Shown in pieces: positions 453-60,034 of a stretch of 64,000 nucleotides of DNA. The position numbers were made by a program, and so were the translations under genes. The notes beneath the pieces were generated by a model that was given only the letters and a program-made list of their open reading frames with translations, ran no database searches and was not told the origin of the DNA. Source of the DNA: an uncultured Clostridia bacterium (GTDB lineage Bacteria > Bacillota > Clostridia > TANB77 > CAG-508); the NCBI GenBank assembly GCA_947589015.1, contig CANPZF010000002.1, positions 18,252 to 82,251 of the forward strand, written 5' to 3'. How positions within the stretch are numbered: position 1 is the first letter of the stretch; each line of letters begins with the position of its first letter.

Positions 453-1036
453 ATTATAACATTAAATGAGAATAGACACAATACACATAAATTGATTGCT
501 TAAGTTTTGGCATTTTTGTGACATTGGCACTTCTCGCTTTTTATTATACAATACGGCAGCATATAGTATATATATTAGTTGATAAATCAACGCTTGATTG
601 GAATGAAAAATAGAAATTCTTATATACAAAATTGAGGGATGTTCACGGAAAAATGATTATTAATATATTCTTTTTCATTACACGCCTCGGCTTGATACAT
701 GACTTAGAAATTCTTGATAAAATCAATCAGCGCCCTCGTGAGGCGAGATTCCCTAATTGATTTTATTTAGAATTTCTACAGTCATTCCACGGCGCATTCG
801 TCGTTTCATTCAAAAGAATATATTAATAATCATTTTGGCCTGAGTGAAAGAGGCGCAATTTTGTATATTAGAATTTCTTTTTGAATGTAATGAACAAGTT
901 GATTTATCAACTAATATATATACTATATGCTGCCGTATTGTATAATAAAAAGCGAGAAGTGCCAATGTCACAAAAATACCAAAACTTAAGCAATCAATTT
1001 ATGTGTATTGTGTCTACTTTCATTTAATGTTATAAT
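453..1036. repeat. Family A nested palindromic element, copy A1 (family-conserved part about 500-989, nested in an extra outer palindrome)
   Basis: Left and right halves are reverse complements around a centre near 745; core 620-900 nearly identical to 24945-25230; related copies at 43850-44268 and 53961-54098. Confidence 0.9.
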
Positions 1037-5897: not shown

Positions 5898-6983
5898 ATG
5901 AAAGAATTCGACAAAAAAATTGTATTAGAAGACGGAGAAGAATATTATGGATATGGATTTGGTAGTAACAAAGAAGCTATATGTGAAATTGTTTTTAATA
6001 CATCTATGGCAGGATACCAAGAAATAATTTCAGACCCATCATATACATATCAGATGGTAGTAATGACATATCCATTAATTGGAAACTATGGAATAACAGA
6101 TGATGACTATGAAACCAAACAACCTACAATCGGAGGAATGATAGTAAGGGAATACAATGACCATCCAAGTAATTTTCGTTATACTAAAACACTATCAGAA
6201 TATTTAGAAGAAAACAATATTCCAGGAATTTCAGGTATAGACACAAGAAAATTAACTAGAAGCATAAGAGAAAAAGGTAGTAGAAAAGTAATTATAACAG
6301 ATATTAATATAAGTAAGCAAAAAGCACTAAAAAAACTACATGAATATGAAATTCCCAAAGATGCAGTAGCAAAAGTAAGTTGCAAGAAAAAATGGTATTC
6401 AAGAACAGCTAATCCAAATTATAATGTAGTAGCTGTAGATTGTGGAATAAAATTAAATATTGTAAGAAATTTAAATAAAAAAGGATGTAATGTAACCATA
6501 GTTCCATATAATACAACAGCTAAAGAAATTATAGAATTAAAACCAGATGGAATATTTTTGTCTAATGGACCAGGAAATCCAGAGGATGTAACAGAAGTAA
6601 TTGAATTAGTAAAAAAATTAAAAGGTAAATATCCTATATTTGGAATATGCTTAGGCCATCAAATGATAAGTCTAGCATATGGGGCTAAAACATATAAATT
6701 GAAATTTGGACATAGAGGAGGAAATCATCCAGTTAAAAATTTAGAAACTGGCAAAATTGAAATTACAAGTCAAAATCATAGCTATGCAGTAGAAGAAGAA
6801 TCATTAAAGAAAACAGGATTAGTAGTAACTCATAAAAATATTTTAGATAATACAGTAGAAGGTGTAGCATGCAAAAAGGACAAAATATTTAGTGTACAAT
6901 ATCATCCAGAGAGTGCACCAGGACCACAAGATAGTGAATATTTATTTGACCAATTTATACAGTTATTAGAAAAAAGTAAATAG
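5898..6983 (+). CDS. carA: Carbamoyl-phosphate synthase small (glutaminase) subunit
   Basis: 361 aa; class I amidotransferase motifs GICLGHQ and HPE; N-terminal CPSase small-chain pattern. Confidence 0.95.
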   Translation: MKEFDKKIVLEDGEEYYGYGFGSNKEAICEIVFNTSMAGYQEIISDPSYTYQMVVMTYPLIGNYGITDDDYETKQPTIGGMIVREYNDHPSNFRYTKTLSEYLEENNIPGISGIDTRKLTRSIREKGSRKVIITDINISKQKALKKLHEYEIPKDAVAKVSCKKKWYSRTANPNYNVVAVDCGIKLNIVRNLNKKGCNVTIVPYNTTAKEIIELKPDGIFLSNGPGNPEDVTEVIELVKKLKGKYPIFGICLGHQMISLAYGAKTYKLKFGHRGGNHPVKNLETGKIEITSQNHSYAVEEESLKKTGLVVTHKNILDNTVEGVACKKDKIFSVQYHPESAPGPQDSEYLFDQFIQLLEKSK

Positions 6984-10651: not shown

Positions 10652-10794
10652 GTTACAAGATAATGATTTAAATGCTTATATATTAATATATTTTGTCAAA
10701 ACATATCTGGGGTGTAACAATCTGGGTATTGACTGCAAATATTAATATATAAGCATTTTAGCATATTCTAAGTTTGTAACCACTATCCTGTAAC
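10652..10794 (+). repeat. Family B palindromic element, copy B1 (inside the intervening element)
   Basis: GTTACAAGATAATG...ATGCTTATATATTAATAT...centre...ATATTAATATATAAGCAT...CTATCCTGTAAC; close to 59878-60034. Confidence 0.85.
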
Positions 10795-36665: not shown

Positions 36666-36809
36666 AAATTCCTCCTAGTGATTAAATTATAACTATTATA
36701 CAACTTTTAAGAGAAAATGTGTAAAAAAAGAGAAAAATAGTTATAATTTATAGCTAAAGTACTAACTGTAAATTGTAACAAAAAATATTCCATTTTAGGT
36801 AAAAAAATA

Positions 36810-38955: not shown

Positions 38956-39221
38956 CATTATGGTAATTTCATCGAATATTACAAAATTGTAATATTTTAA
39001 CATATATGATAAAATGCAACAAAGTGATGAAAATAAATAACAATGAGATATTTAATTTGTAGTAAAAAAAGAGATTGAAAAAATGGAAAAAAGGCAGGAG
39101 AAATGAGCTTGTATTTAAGTAATAAAAACACATCAGCAGAAAATTTATTGTCATATACAAGAAAGCATTGGAAAATAGAAGGGAATGCATCATATTTGTA
39201 ATAATTGATGAAATTACCATG
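38956..39221 (+). mobile_element. Deletion remnant of an IS element (ISAs1-like transposase C-terminal fragment between inverted repeats)
   Basis: Inverted repeats CATTATGGTAATTTCATCGAATATTACAAAATTG (38956-) and ATTTGTAATAATTGATGAAATTACCATG (-39221); internal fragment ...SAENLLSYTRKHWKIEG resembles the transposase motif RGHWxIEN. Confidence 0.5.
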
Positions 39222-39384: not shown

Positions 39385-39768
39385 CTATACTTTAGGAAAA
39401 TAAAGAAGAAAGTAATAAAGAGGAAAAAGATAGCATTAAACCTAAAAGAAAGTAGGTTTGAATGTTGTCTTTTTTGTGTTTATAAATATATAAATGACAC
39501 GTCATGAGATATGCAAAAAATAAAGTAAAAAACCAAAAAAGGCAAGACAAAAGTATTGCAAAAAGAAAGTGCTTAAAGTATAATCTAGATATAAATTATA
39601 AGCTATTTTTTATAGTATAAGATTGAAGAATAATTACAATTTGAATCAATGTGTGCCTTAGTAAGGAATAATTATAAAGATGAAAAAAATCGATTAAAAG
39701 GTATATGATTATAAAAAATGGAAATAATTGAAATAAAAGAAAAACAAAAGAGAGAGGGGAATATTGAG

Positions 39769-40608
39769 ATGAAAAAAAGAAAAAAAGTGAAATTAAAAAT
39801 GGAAGGAAGAAATGAAAATAAGGGTATAACATTAATAGCCTTAGTTATCACAATAATAGTGTTATTAATACTAGCAGGAGTAAGTATAGCAACATTAACA
39901 GGAGATAATGGAATTTTGACAAAAGCAACCAATAGTAGTGTACAAAATGCACATGCTCAAGTATATGAGGCATTACAATTAGAAAGTGAACATTATATGA
40001 TTTTAAAGAACACAGGAGAAACAAAAGAAGAATTAATAAAATACTTACAGAATTATGGATTTATTAATAGTGATTATACTGTAAATGTGCAAACATTATT
40101 AGGGAAAAAATTACAAACAGGCAATGGAACAGGAACAACAGATGTATACAAATTAGAAGAAATAGTAAAAGAAGCAAGTTTATTACAAAAAATAGCGAGT
40201 GTACAATATTTAAAAATTGCAGAAACAACAAATGCATTAAATAAAAAATACAGTGTGGTATACTATAATGCAGAAGGTGAAAGAACAGAATTAGGAATTT
40301 TAAAAGACATAACACCAGAAATTTCAAATGAAATCACGTTTAATATTGAAAGTAGAATATTAGGAACACTAAGCGGAACATATCATGCATTAAAAGGTAT
40401 GACATGGGGAGAATTTATCGAAACAGAATACAATACATTTGGATTAAAATTAGATACATTTCCATATTCAGATGGAGGTCATGCAATGAAAGTAGATGAG
40501 GGAGGAAGACTATTTTATAGAGATGACTATGGAGTTAATGACTACGTAAATAGCACATCTAAAATTATAAATGGAGAAACATATGTTTTGAGAGGGTGGA
40601 GTGAATAA
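39769..40608 (+). CDS. Pilin-like N-terminus protein with a unique C-terminal domain
   Basis: MKKRKKVKLKMEGRNENKG/ITLIALVITIIVLLILAGVSIATLTGDNGIL; N-terminal DNA highly similar (about 85% by eye) to 36982 gene; start moved to the Met after GAGGGG. Confidence 0.7.
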   Translation: MKKRKKVKLKMEGRNENKGITLIALVITIIVLLILAGVSIATLTGDNGILTKATNSSVQNAHAQVYEALQLESEHYMILKNTGETKEELIKYLQNYGFINSDYTVNVQTLLGKKLQTGNGTGTTDVYKLEEIVKEASLLQKIASVQYLKIAETTNALNKKYSVVYYNAEGERTELGILKDITPEISNEITFNIESRILGTLSGTYHALKGMTWGEFIETEYNTFGLKLDTFPYSDGGHAMKVDEGGRLFYRDDYGVNDYVNSTSKIINGETYVLRGWSE

Positions 40609-41186: not shown

Positions 41187-41423
41187 ATGATACAAGTAAC
41201 AAATATACAAGACTTAAAAACAGCAGTAAATCAAAATGGAGAAATGGTTATTACTATGAATAATAATGAAATTGTAATTATGAAAATGGAAGAATATAGA
41301 GAAAAACTATTAAAGGAAGATATAGAAGAACATCTATTGAAGGCAGAAGATGATATAAGAAATGGCAGAGTAAGAGATGCAAGAGAAGTTTTTAAAGAAT
41401 GGAAAGAAAAATATGGAATATAG
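41187..41423 (+). CDS. Type II antitoxin (Phd/YefM- or RelB-like)
   Basis: 78 aa; stop overlaps the start of the downstream RelE/ParE-like gene. Confidence 0.6.
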   Translation: MIQVTNIQDLKTAVNQNGEMVITMNNNEIVIMKMEEYREKLLKEDIEEHLLKAEDDIRNGRVRDAREVFKEWKEKYGI

Positions 41424-41730
41424 CATAAAATTAGCAGACCAATTTTTAGAAGAGTTTGAAGAAATATGCGACTATATTTCTAATAAATTAAAAAATATAG
41501 ATGCCTCAAATAGATTAAAAGAAAAAGTAATATATAATGTTCTTTTATTAGAAAATTCTCCAAAAATGTGTACTGAAATAGAAAAGATAAATAGAACAGA
41601 AAGACAATATAGAAGAATGCTTGTAAATAACTATGTTATTTTATATACCATAGATGAGCCAGAAAAAATAGTATATGTTGCACATATATATTATGGTGGA
41701 AGAAACTATTTAGATGGTGGTTTATTATAG
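41413..41730 (+). CDS. RelE/ParE-family type II toxin
   Basis: MEYSIKLADQFLEEFEEICDYI...YRRMLVNNYVILYTIDEPEKIVYVAHIYYGGRNY; start moved to the Met overlapping the antitoxin stop. Confidence 0.7.
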   Translation: MEYSIKLADQFLEEFEEICDYISNKLKNIDASNRLKEKVIYNVLLLENSPKMCTEIEKINRTERQYRRMLVNNYVILYTIDEPEKIVYVAHIYYGGRNYLDGGLL

Positions 41731-41873
41731 AAAATAAATAAGAATTTTGCTTTGAGTTTAAGAAATTAAATTCAAGGCGATTTTTATTTTCAAATTAATC
41801 ATATAAAAAATAAAAAGCAAACAATTAAATCTAGTATGTTTAACTGTTTGCTTAATGATAAGTATTTATTAGA

Positions 41874-41911
41874 AATATTACAATTTTGTAATAATCGATG
41901 AAATTACCATG
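41874..41911 (+). repeat. Solo IS terminal inverted repeat (same as the 38956-38996 end, opposite orientation)
   Basis: AATATTACAATTTTGTAATAATCGATGAAATTACCATG is the reverse complement of 38956-38996 with 1-2 mismatches. Confidence 0.7.
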
Positions 41912-41997
41912 ATAAAAACACTAATCATATTGGAAAAATCAAAAATATATGGTATACTTATGCATAATCAATATAGAATTAAAGGAAAGGGATAAAA

Positions 41998-43836: not shown

Positions 43837-43849
43837 TTGAATATATAGT

Positions 43850-44268
43850 AATTTTTAAGTTTCGGTATTTTTGTAACTTTAGTACTTCTTACTTTTTATT
43901 CTACAATACGGTAACATATAGTATATATTTAGTTGATAAATCAATTTGTTCATTACATTCAAAAAGAAATTCTAATATTACAAAATTGAGCCTCTTTCAC
44001 TCAGGTCAAAATGATTATTAATATATTCTTTTGAATGAAACGACGAATGTGCCGTGGAATTTCTAAGTCATGTATCAAGCTGAGTCGTGTAGAATATATT
44101 AATAATCATTTTTCCCGTGAACATTCCTCAATTTTGTATATAAGAATTTCTATTTTTCATTCCAATCAAGCATTGATTTATCAACTAAATATATACTATA
44201 TGTTGCCGTGTTGTAGAATAAAAAGTAAGAAGTACTAAAGTTACAAAAATACCGAAACTAAAAATAGT
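43850..44268. repeat. Family A element, copy A3 (core inverted relative to A1/A2, apical hairpin deleted)
   Basis: Arms TTTTTAAGTTTCGGTATTTTTGTAACTTTAGTACTTCTTAC... self-pair; core is the reverse complement of the A2 core minus about 77 bp between GAATTTCTA repeats. Confidence 0.85.
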
Positions 44269-44355
44269 AATTTAATTGACATTTTTTTTAATTTATAGTA
44301 TACTGAGCACGTAGTAGATTTTAGATAAATATGGTAATTTAAGGAGAAATTTGCA

Positions 44356-45778: not shown

Positions 45779-48277
45779 GTGAAAAAAATCTTAGTAAATA
45801 GACCAATTGTAGTTGCAGTTATAGGATATATAATAGGTATATTATGGGGACTATACTTTAAATTTAGTATAGTTCTTTTTTATTTTCCTGTAATTGTAAT
45901 ATGGATGTTATTTAAAAGAAAAAATAATAAAGTAAAAAAATTAAAACTTTTATCTATAAAAAGATATTTTAGATATGTAAAACTTATAATTCCTAAAAAG
46001 GTAATTATATTAATAATTGTATTTTCATCAATATCCAACATATTTTTTGCATGTCAAGATTTAAAGTATGAAAAGCTATATAAAGAAGGAAAGATTAGTT
46101 TAACAGGTACAATCTATAGTGATAAACAAGAAAAACAATATAATTACATTTATAAAATGAAGGTAGAAAAACCCGCAAAATATAATGCAACAGAAATATA
46201 TTTAAAAATAAACAAAAAGCAAGAAATAGAACTAAAATATGGAGATAAGATTACCGTATCTGGAGAATATCAAAATGCAGATGGACAAAGAAATTATGGA
46301 GGATATGATGCAAAACAAAATTTAAAAATAAACAAAATTTATGGAACAATTATAGCCAATGATGTGAAAAAAATAGATAAAGATAAAGTGAATTTTATAA
46401 ATATAGAAATACATAAATTATCGGTAAAAATCAAAGAAAAAATATATAAATATGTAAAAGACGAAGAAGCGGATATTTTACAAGGAATCTTATTAGGAGA
46501 TACACGGAAGAATTAGTGACGAAATAAAGGAACAGTTTAGCATTAGCAATATATCGCATATTTTAGCCGTATCAGGTATGCATATTTCATATTTAATAAT
46601 AGGAATAAATATTTGTTTTAAGAAACTTTTTGGAAAAAACACCATTCAAATAGTTACAATATGTGTGCTTATTGTATATTCATGTATAATTGGATTTTCA
46701 GAATCAACTGTTAGAGCTGTTATTATGGCAGTGATGATTATTATATCGAAATTAATTTATAGAAAAAGTGATATATATACAAGTATAGCGATTTCACTAT
46801 TTGTAATTTTAATTTATAATCCATATTGTATTTTGCAGATAGGAATACAGCTTTCTTATGGAGGAACATTAGGTATACTACTTTTTTCAAAAAATATGAA
46901 TAATATAATAAAATGCAAAAATGAAAAGATAGAAAAAATAAAAGAAATGATATCAGTTATGTGTTCTGCTCAAATAGTAATTTTACCAATTATGTTATTT
47001 CATTTTAATATTTTAGGATTATATTTTATTATTACAAATATATTAGTTAGTTTTATTATAGGTTTGATTGTAATATTAGGTTTTATTTTTTGTATAACAG
47101 CTTTTGTAAGTAATACTAGTGCTAAAGTTATTTCAATATTTCTAAAAATCGGAGTAAAAATTTTAATTCAAATATCTAAATTCAGTAACTTACCGTTTGC
47201 TAAAATATATATTCCAACTATAAAAATTTGGAAAATTATTATATATTTTGCTATCATTTTGGTGTTGAATTTTTGGTATACATTATATCAAAAAAATTAT
47301 TTGAATATGACACAAAGGAGGATAAAAAATTTAATTGCGCTTTTTAAGTATAAAATGAAAAATGTAAAAAAATTTGGCGTAATTATATGTATAATATTAA
47401 TTTGCATTATTAAAATCTTACCACAAAATTTAAAAGTCCATTTTATAGATGTAGGACAAGGAGATGCAACATTAATAGTAACTCCTAAAAATAAAACAAT
47501 ATTGATAGATGGTGGGGGAAGTAGTTCTTCAAATTTTGATGTAGGCAAACAGATTTTATTACCATATATATTAGATAGAGGATTTTCAAAAATAGATTAT
47601 GTGTTTATCAGTCATTTTGACTATGATCATATTGGTCGGAATTTTATATTTATTGAAAGAAATAAAAGTAAAAAATGTCATAATAGGTAAACAATTTGAA
47701 AAGTCAGAAATTTATCAAGAATTTTCAAAAATTGTAAAAGAAAAAAGAATAGAAGTAAATGAAATAGAAGAAGGAACAAAAATCAAAATTGAAGATGACT
47801 TATATTTAGATGTATTATGGCCAGATAGTGAACAAGTATTGTCAAAAAATTCTATTAATAATAATGCTTTAGTATTTAAGCTGAATTATAAAAAATTTTC
47901 AATGTTATTTACTGGAGATATAGAAGAAGAAGCTGAGAAAATTTTAGTTTCAAAATATAATAATACAAATATTTTAGAATCTGTAGTTTTGAAAGTAGGA
48001 CATCATGGATCAAAAACATCTTCAACTCAAAAATTTTTACAATTAATTAAGCCTAAGATTTCATTAATTGGCGTAGGTAAAAATAATAATTTCGGACATC
48101 CAAATGATGATGTAATACAACGATTGAAAAAATTACGGCTCTATAATTTTTAGAACAGATGAAGATGGAGAAATAAGCATGGAGATAAATAGGAAAGGGA
48201 AAATAAAAATGCTAAGGGTTGCCGAAAGAGACGCTCTTAAATTGCCAAAGGGGACGTTCTTAAATGGCAACTTATAA
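45779..48277 (+). pseudogene. comEC: DNA internalization competence protein ComEC/Rec2 with three 1-nt frameshifts
   Basis: Three ORFs join as ...LLGDTRK/ISDEIKEQFSISNISHILAVSGMH (about 46510), ...HFDYDHIG/GILYLLKE (extra C at 47637), ...VIQRLK/NYGSIIFRTDEDGEI (A6 at 48127-48132); metallo-beta-lactamase HFDYDH motif. Confidence 0.8.
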
Positions 48278-48358
48278 TAAGTAATATTTTACTTTTATAA
48301 GTTGCCATTTAAGAACGTCCCCTTTGGCAATTTAAGAGCGTCCCTTTCGGCAACCCTT
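48214..48358. repeat. 145-bp near-perfect palindrome built from about 23-bp subrepeats
   Basis: AAGGGTTGCCGAAAGAGACGCTCTTAAATTGCCAAAGGGGACGTTCTTAAATGGCAACTTATAA, about 15-nt loop, then the reverse complement (1 mismatch). Confidence 0.9.
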
Positions 48359-53960: not shown

Positions 53961-54098
53961 TTTAAGTTTTGGTATTTTTTGTAACTTTTGCGTTTATCAC
54001 TTTTTATTCTACAACACGGTAGCATATAGTATATATTTAGTTGATAAATCAATGTTTGAAAGTAATGAACAAAGTTACAAAAAATACCGAAACTAAAA
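53961..54098. repeat. Family A element remnant, copy A4 (left arm, core stub, outermost right arm)
   Basis: TTTAAGTTTTGGTATTTTTTGTAAC...GTTGATAAATCAA, then TTTGAAAGTAATGAACAAA, then AGTTACAAAAAATACCGAAACTAAA. Confidence 0.8.
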
Positions 54099-56825: not shown

Positions 56826-57006
56826 TATGCAGTGTTACTAGTCAGCCTTGAAAAATATGAATTATTAAAAATGCCTATATATTAATATTTAGCAGTCAAG
56901 ACCATGATTGTTATGCCCTAGCTATGTTTTGACAAAAAATATTAATATATAGGCATTTTTCTGAAATTATGTGTATAGAATGGCTGACTAGTAACTATGC
57001 AGTAAC
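56826..57006 (-). repeat. Family B palindromic element, copy B3 (inverted, divergent outer arms)
   Basis: Centre is the reverse complement of the B1/B4 centre (highly similar, about 80% by eye); inner arms AAAATGCCTATATATTAATAT/ATATTAATATATAGGCATTTT; outer arms GCAGTGTTACTAGTCAGCC/GGCTGACTAGTAACTATGC. Confidence 0.8.
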
Positions 57007-59877: not shown

Positions 59878-60034
59878 GTTACAAGATAATGGTTTAAAAA
59901 TTAGCTATGAAAATGCTTATATATTAATATATTTTGTCAAAACATATCTGGGGTGTAACAATCTGGGTTTTGACTGCAAATATTAATATATAAGCATTTT
60001 CCATATTCTAAGTTTATAACCATTATCATGTAAC
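59878..60034 (+). repeat. Family B palindromic element, copy B4 (most complete)
   Basis: GTTACAAGATAATGGTT...AACCATTATCATGTAAC outer arms; nested inner arms; asymmetric centre TTTTGTCAAAACATATCTGGGGTGTAACAATCTGGGTTTTGACTGCAAA. Confidence 0.85.

Follow-up and report, generated by a model that had tools for sequence, protein, structure and literature searches.

Family A, a probable foldback-type MITE with a conserved GC-rich core in AT-rich uncultured gut Clostridia

Family A and other repeats in the 64-kb window

The 64-kb stretch of DNA analysed here, called the window throughout, has a GC content of about 26% and carries genes for SpoIIID, YunB and SipL, which together indicate a spore-forming Clostridia-like organism. 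Near its start, just upstream of a PAP2 gene at 1068, a repeat finder delimited a nested palindrome spanning 437-1052, whose outer arms (437-591 and 898-1052) are 155 nt long and 94% complementary and enclose three further inverted repeats (608-634/856-882, 643-684/802-843 and 705-730/753-778). Folded as single-stranded DNA, these 616 nt reached -212.4 kcal/mol, against -51.4 ± 4.7 kcal/mol for shuffled sequences (z = -34). An earlier inspection of the letters (the sequence-only reading) had described a self-folding nested interval at 453-1036 that carries GC-rich islands and lacks coding capacity. The fold was borne out over a slightly larger extent, the islands were present at 634-648, 837-856, 681-703, 781-803 and the apex at 728-753, and the open reading frames inside the element were all 55 aa or shorter, arranged in mirror-image pairs that are produced by the palindrome itself.

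Within the palindrome lies a full-length, 490-bp copy of the repeat family, which we term Family A, at 500-989 on the plus strand (copy 1, c1; tips TTAAGTTTTGG... and ...CCAAAACTTAA). Its left outer arm (500-590) pairs with the right outer arm (899-989) at 98.9% self-complementarity and is 75-88% identical to the arms of copies 2 and 3. Further in, loop 2 reads GAGGGATGTTCACGG on its 5' side (634-648, plus strand), where TTCAC pairs with GTGAA opposite, and the GC-rich island GGCCTGAGTGAAAGAGGCGC on its 3' side (837-856, plus strand). The core common to other species occupies 673-813 on the plus strand, as defined by alignments and by covariance model R1, which was built from the core and scored this copy at 117.9 bits. 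On the plus strand, it consists of a 5' loop (681-703), an inner stem (704-727/754-780), an apex (728-753) and a 3' loop (781-803).

Beyond the c1 tips lies an extra outer palindromic layer with its left half at 437-499 and its mirror at 990-1052. The left half bears an outward-facing TGTTATAAT promoter-like box (read by eye), the right half carries the mirrored box upstream of the PAP2 gene, and both halves are absent from the other copies in the window. We observed that this 63-nt extension mirrors the TGTTATAAT box together with part of the leader/ribosome-binding region of both divergent flanking genes, and that c2 likewise has an inverted flank, of 14 nt. Flanks that are inverted rather than direct are unlike the prediction of a simple insertion.

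The sequence-only reading had counted four copies of the element in the window, all intergenic. BLAST of the element against the window confirmed the intergenic position of all four, of which three bear the core (c1-c3) and the fourth (c4) is a remnant only. Copy 2 is full length (24827-25317, plus strand; core at 25001-25141) and sits between the divergent promoters of rplM-rpsI and of a gene at 25424. Copy 3 (43854-44264) has its core on the minus strand and carries two losses, one of about 74 nt from the inner stem and apex and one of 8 nt from stem 1. What survives in the remnant c4 (53962-54097, plus strand) is the left arm, a 20-nt piece from the 3' side of loop 3 and the terminal 26 nt of the right arm. 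The second of its deletions stops exactly at a GTTACA within the right arm (54075-54097), which hints at an adjacent deletion made by a transposase. A solo end-like sequence, CTGTAAATTGTAAC, was also seen at 36766-36779. A search of the window with model R1 found no further core, and its only other matches were unrelated long hairpins.

Other repeats accompany Family A in the window. Three small MITEs of 143-162 bp, with GTTAC...GTAAC tips, are each flanked by a perfect 8-bp duplication: AATTTTTT at 10652-10794, TATGCAGT at 56834-56995 and AAAAAATC at 59878-60034. An 8-bp-duplicating transposition system has thus acted in this genome. Kinship of these elements with Family A or its core was considered and rejected, as the similarity did not exceed that of shuffled sequences. 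In two of them (10652-10794 and 59878-60034), the apex carries a direct repeat, ATCTGGGGT / ATCTGGGT, around GTAACA that resembles an excision footprint. A separate palindrome at 48214-48358 has 64-nt arms that are 98% complementary and rich in GGGACG(T)TC motifs, and in three other MAGs (loci L025, L029 and L116), similar GGGACGTTTC repeats lie directly next to the core element. Finally, a 41-nt inverted repeat (95%; 38957-38997 and 41873-41913) brackets about 2.9 kb that include a ParE-toxin gene (41377-41730) and an ORF without a Pfam hit (39718-40608). This segment may be a small mobile or addiction module.

Relatives, tips and target-site duplications

Relatives were gathered by scanning one genome per species for exact matches to the 20-mer of the 3' loop, ATTCCACGGCRCATTCGTCG, which returned 32 loci. 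About 25 of these lie in roughly a dozen AT-rich MAGs labelled uncultured Clostridia, Eubacteriales or Clostridium, and the GC-rich matches of the scan are due to chance. The sample names of some core-bearing MAGs point to chicken or rabbit ("Lapin"), and each MAG elsewhere holds one to four copies. A metagenome scan with a 19-mer returned 83 stretches, of which three were real, all at orthologous loci already known, and the rest were GC-rich chance matches. Viral contigs gave no exact match to the 20-mer and only single chance matches to the tip GTTACAGTTCACAG, and BLAST of the 616-nt element against plasmid and phage collections gave no match. Model R1 recovered two diverged copies that lack the 20-mer (L029, 6103-6244, and L020, 3260-3400).

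The usual form in other MAGs is about 200 bp long and consists of a tip (GTTACAGTTCACAG or TTWAGTTTC in this basic form), a variable, self-complementary arm of 30-45 nt and the core of about 140 nt. The order of the core is constant: a 5' loop (CTCCTCGGCTTG; ATCTCCTCGGCTTGNTACAT), an inner stem of about 27 bp, the apex ACGAGCCTCTCGCTATCGCGCTTCCTCA, the return strand and a 3' loop (TTCCACGGCACATTCGTCG; ATTCCACGGCACATTCGTCG). In the Family A copies of the window and in the copies of a rabbit MAG (L013, L016 and L021, about 90% identical), the core is wrapped in two more palindromic layers, and this 490-bp nested form, layers and core together, moves as one unit.

Copy 3 is flanked on both sides by the perfect 8-bp direct repeat TAGTAATT, read directly at 43846-43853 and 44265-44272. 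Basic elements in MAG CANAUI01 are bounded by GTTACAGTTCACAG...CTGTGAACTGTAAC (GTTACA...TGTAAC). They carry duplications exactly at these tips: L015 (8/8, AACTTGTA/AACTTGTA), L012 (7/8, AAATTAAC/AAATTAAT) and L028 (7/8, TTTTCTAT/TTTCCTAT). By our own estimate, a match of at least 7/8 at a fixed offset in AT-rich sequence has a chance of about 0.002 each, so three out of three are not accidental. The GTTACAGTTCACAG tips are conserved in these three elements and in L029, from another MAG, where the second, diverged copy (6052-6294) has the same tips. The duplicated targets are of varied AT-rich sequence. No direct target-site duplication was found at c1 or c2, which have inverted flanks instead, at c4, or at the old orthologous copies.

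These observations support the suggestion, made from the letters, that the element is a MITE: it has terminal inverted repeats (arms 97-99% self-complementary), 8-bp duplications at c3, L012, L015 and L028, a length of 200-490 bp, no ORF above 55 aa and dispersed intergenic copies. An autonomous partner with matching tips was sought among the window ORFs tested, about 240 kb of related loci and the recurrent neighbours, and none was found; window ORFs flanked by long inverted repeats likewise yielded no transposase. The IS6 family, which shares the 8-bp duplication, was considered as the parent and rejected, as its tip consensus, GG...cTGTt...caaa, is unlike that of Family A (PMC7986276).

The neighbours that recur across loci are orthologous housekeeping genes only (Ham1, AddA, rpoC, SpoIIE and M23 peptidases). 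Proteins of the nearest other species are no more than about 74% identical. At the Ham1-AddA locus, the element is present between the same flanks in nine species-representative MAGs, with the core in one orientation in six and in the other in three, and such flips were seen between species only. Shared orthologous positions in nine MAGs point to long residence rather than recent movement. One allele at this locus (L027, 5886-6083) has the left arm of one allele type and the right arm of another, with 18/30 positions complementary, and is a recombinant within the core. An empty site was sought in other samples of the same species and none was found, as these carried the same alleles or had contigs that break inside the repeat. 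Short-read contigs of this species (L033-L035, L120 and L241-L244) terminate within c1, c2 and c3 or at their tips, which is what a repeat predicts.

Paired stems, divergent arms and a constrained core

A covariation analysis supported the fold. In the inner stem, compensatory double changes affected 11 of the 24 predicted pairs, as in L024, where AAAT/ATTT has become CCCC/GGGG. In the curated structure, 90.3% of cells were paired, compared with 79.7% when partners were shuffled among sequences and 31-48% when partners were slid. In 500 shuffles, the values found for percentage paired, for pairs or cells with changes on both sides and for the covariation score were never attained; 33 of the 500 attained the count of further pair types.

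The outer arms are specific to each copy: an arm matched its own partner at 27.9 of 30 positions and the right arms of other copies at 12.0 ± 3.7 of 30. Copies c1 and c2 share 98.4% identity over their inner 308 nt and only 75-77% in their outer arms, and yet the arms within each of these copies are 97-99% self-complementary. The two copies differ at 19 columns altered in concert in both arms and at three that are not. Likewise, cores in two genomes are 97-98% identical beside arms that are 73-77% identical. Within one genome, the divergence of the arms and that of the core differ tenfold, which was surprising. The earlier statement that the asymmetric core outdoes the arms in conservation therefore holds, as shown by the c1/c2 values. 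Its companion, that the terminal repeats are not conserved, stands for the arms, which do diverge between copies, and fails for the outermost 20 nt or so, which are conserved; the tips TTAAGTTTYGGTATTTTT are kept in c1-c4.

Stems vary widely without losing their pairing, and the apex and loops scarcely differ across genera. In the second L029 copy, the most diverged member, the stems are entirely different and the loops partly so, and the apex is identical at 28 of 29 positions. The apparent invariance of the 3' loop 20-mer is in part a matter of ascertainment, since this sequence served as the exact-match query for the loci; no such selection acted on the apex or the 5' loop. Both the strength of the apex constraint and the long residence at orthologous sites were surprising. 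Two other identities were tried for the core and rejected: a small ORF running through it, as apex indels break the frame between copies, and an ssoA CS-6-like box at apex TCGCTA, which is unconserved where the mini-stem covaries.

Interpretation of Family A

Our data show that the element is non-autonomous, has inverted tips and is inserted by way of an 8-bp staggered cut. We consider it probable that Family A is a foldback-type MITE of AT-rich uncultured gut Clostridia, gene-less and with long terminal inverted repeats, rather than an RNA gene. A plain MITE leaves the conservation of the apex and loops, far above that of the arms, without explanation. One answer would be that the core, a covarying rod that carries the apex and two asymmetric loops, functions as a folded nucleic acid, for example as a module of hairpin RNA or single-stranded DNA whose shape is read by a transposase or host protein, and is under selection at fixed chromosomal sites across genera. 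Family A would then be a REPIN-like "resident replicator" with a novel type of recognition module and not a decaying MITE, which we regard as rather unlikely.

The sequence-only reading had also raised a large structured RNA, and in that case the core would be a multi-copy sRNA or a cis-acting UTR element riding in, or captured by, the palindromic repeat, with the loops and apex as RNA tertiary or protein-binding motifs. Strong covariation in the inner stem and the apex mini-stem, G-U pairs in the mini-stem of five sequences and GC-rich islands in a 26% GC genome, which are typical of structured RNAs, would all suit such a molecule, and bcr1 of the Bacillus cereus group offers the precedent of a transcribed MITE-like repeat with compensatory changes (PMC3184786). 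Covariation does not discriminate RNA from DNA, however, because a DNA palindrome predicts it equally. Where the two should differ, nothing specific to RNA emerged. Searches of Rfam 15 with the window, c1 and a basic copy gave nothing at the gathering score and, at E values up to 10, only noise from miRNA- and snoRNA-like hairpins. Wobble-type mismatches on the core strand showed no strand bias (76 G:T and 62 A:C), and both orientations occur within the window as well as at the Ham1-AddA site. The c1 and c2 arms contain TTGGCA-17-TACAAT boxes that face inward and make transcription of the core possible, but their count is not above chance, and no conserved promoter or terminator was found. Moreover, several copies lie outside transcription units: c2 and c4 are between divergent promoters with -35 boxes that face away from the element (read by eye), and the L005-type copies at Ham1-AddA lie between a terminator-like hairpin and the addA promoter. 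On this evidence, we judge an RNA function unlikely.

The remaining alternatives invoke DNA. The GC-rich loops could be functionless junction scars (decayed tips or duplicated targets) of serial insertion of MITE into MITE that look conserved through recent spread. The TTCAC/GTGAA of loop 2 resembles the GTTCAC of basic tips, the two core loops share a direct TCCWCGGC 8-mer of the same length as the family's duplication, and the small MITEs at 10652-10794 and 59878-60034 have an apex resembling an excision footprint. The 8-mer match is not significant by our own estimate (about 0.26 by chance), so that we rejected it as a relic duplication, and the families are without significant similarity. 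Recency can explain neither the apex identical at 28 of 29 positions in a member with completely replaced stems nor the near-identical cores beside diverged arms in two genomes, and scars therefore seem distinctly improbable. Alternatively, the element could act as folded single-stranded DNA, either as a hairpin for an HUH or tyrosine recombinase, as an integron-attC-like site or as a single-strand replication or priming signal, with unpaired conserved boxes that mark the strand. Integron attC sites and IS200/IS605 ends have variable stems with conserved unpaired bases, a logic that Family A matches; its fold is also highly stable, and pairing is maintained without an RNA-type strand bias. Against this, its 8-bp target-site duplications point to the staggered cut of a DDE-type enzyme, and IS200/IS605, RAYT/REP and attC recombination are not known to leave target-site duplications. 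The window ORFs and locus neighbours scanned included no gene for an HUH enzyme, an integrase or a Rep protein, and the family is missing from the plasmid, phage and viral collections. This makes a single-stranded mode of action very unlikely. An IS200/IS605-derived PATE or an attC site was also rejected as an identity for the element: such sites insert beside a short specific sequence and are not known to have target-site duplications, and Family A has 8-bp duplications of varied AT-rich sequence. Still less credible is an invertible switch, in which the arms would be recombination sites and the asymmetric core would act on neighbouring promoters differently by orientation. The six-to-three split at Ham1-AddA, the recombinant allele L027 and the position of copies 12-40 nt upstream of outward-facing promoters (read by eye) would fit an inverton. 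But since the arms differ in every copy (12.0 of 30 positions complementary between copies), they could not all be recognised by one and the same site-specific invertase; occasional flips are explained by homologous recombination between inverted repeats of 30-150 bp, no invertase was seen among the window ORFs scanned or adjoining the element at any locus, and the core has no evident promoter.

Returning to the foldback-type MITE, we propose that a DDE-type transposase acting in trans would read the tips and mobilise the element. Pairing within each copy may be kept because the element has to fold, into a cruciform or as a single strand, in order to move, or because such folding helps to bring its tips together. 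Alternatively, template switching or gene conversion may let one arm correct the other. The arms do recombine, as indicated by the orientation flips and by the recombinant allele L027. The GC-rich apex and loops are putative recognition sites for the transposase, an accessory factor or a host protein, such that only copies that retain them would propagate; protein recognition is suggested because strong AT pressure would otherwise decay these sequences. The extra layers may come from one such element inserting into the centre of another. Statistical support for nested insertion, to which the likeness between loop 2 and the basic tips would be relevant, was not obtained.

The closest analogues of Family A are bcr1 and the other group A bcr repeats of the Bacillus cereus group, followed by ERIC, Correia and RUP. 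Both bcr1 and Family A are small intergenic repeats of Firmicutes with flanking direct repeats, no ORF and no known transposase, and in both the folded structure is kept by compensatory changes (PMC3184786). At about 155 bp, bcr1 has 5-bp duplications and two independent stem-loops and is transcribed (PMC3184786). Family A differs in its 8-bp duplications, in its one long nested hairpin of 200-490 bp and in its conserved GC-rich apex. Like Family A, the classical bacterial MITEs ERIC, Correia (CREE) and RUP are intergenic imperfect palindromes with conserved internal sequence, terminal inverted repeats and duplications, and they form larger variants through extra internal blocks (PMC3184786). 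They are, however, 100-160 bp long with TA duplications, whereas the arms of Family A are far longer and copy-specific and its duplication is of 8 bp. The likely partner IS, or sites for host factors, have been described for Correia and RUP, unlike for Family A.

Eukaryotic foldback elements and long-TIR MITEs consist almost entirely of inverted repeat around a short asymmetric centre, with arms homogenised within each copy. Their likeness to Family A is one of form only, as they belong to another domain of life and to other transposases. REPINs are long hairpins of inverted units that are long-lived at orthologous sites and are moved by an enzyme encoded elsewhere. Family A resembles them in its long hairpin, in its persistence at orthologous sites and in a mover that is presumably encoded elsewhere. 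REPs have a GTAG or CGTC head (PMC3733652). These 20-40-nt, GC-rich units are not known to leave target-site duplications, and Family A fits neither the head nor the duplication feature. Membership of the REP/REPIN-RAYT group was rejected for Family A, as its units are 200-490 bp long, AT-rich and flanked by 8-bp duplications.

Family A adds a well-delimited MITE family, with its tips, 8-bp duplication and basic 200-bp and nested 490-bp forms, to a poorly known lineage of uncultured gut Clostridia, and it explains intergenic breaks in short-read assemblies of these genomes. It also provides a clean natural case in which arms have diverged between copies and remain paired within each, beside a strongly constrained core, a pattern that is useful for the study of how long palindromes are kept up in bacteria. 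If the core is a recognition module for a transposase or host protein, it would offer a handle for finding that protein.
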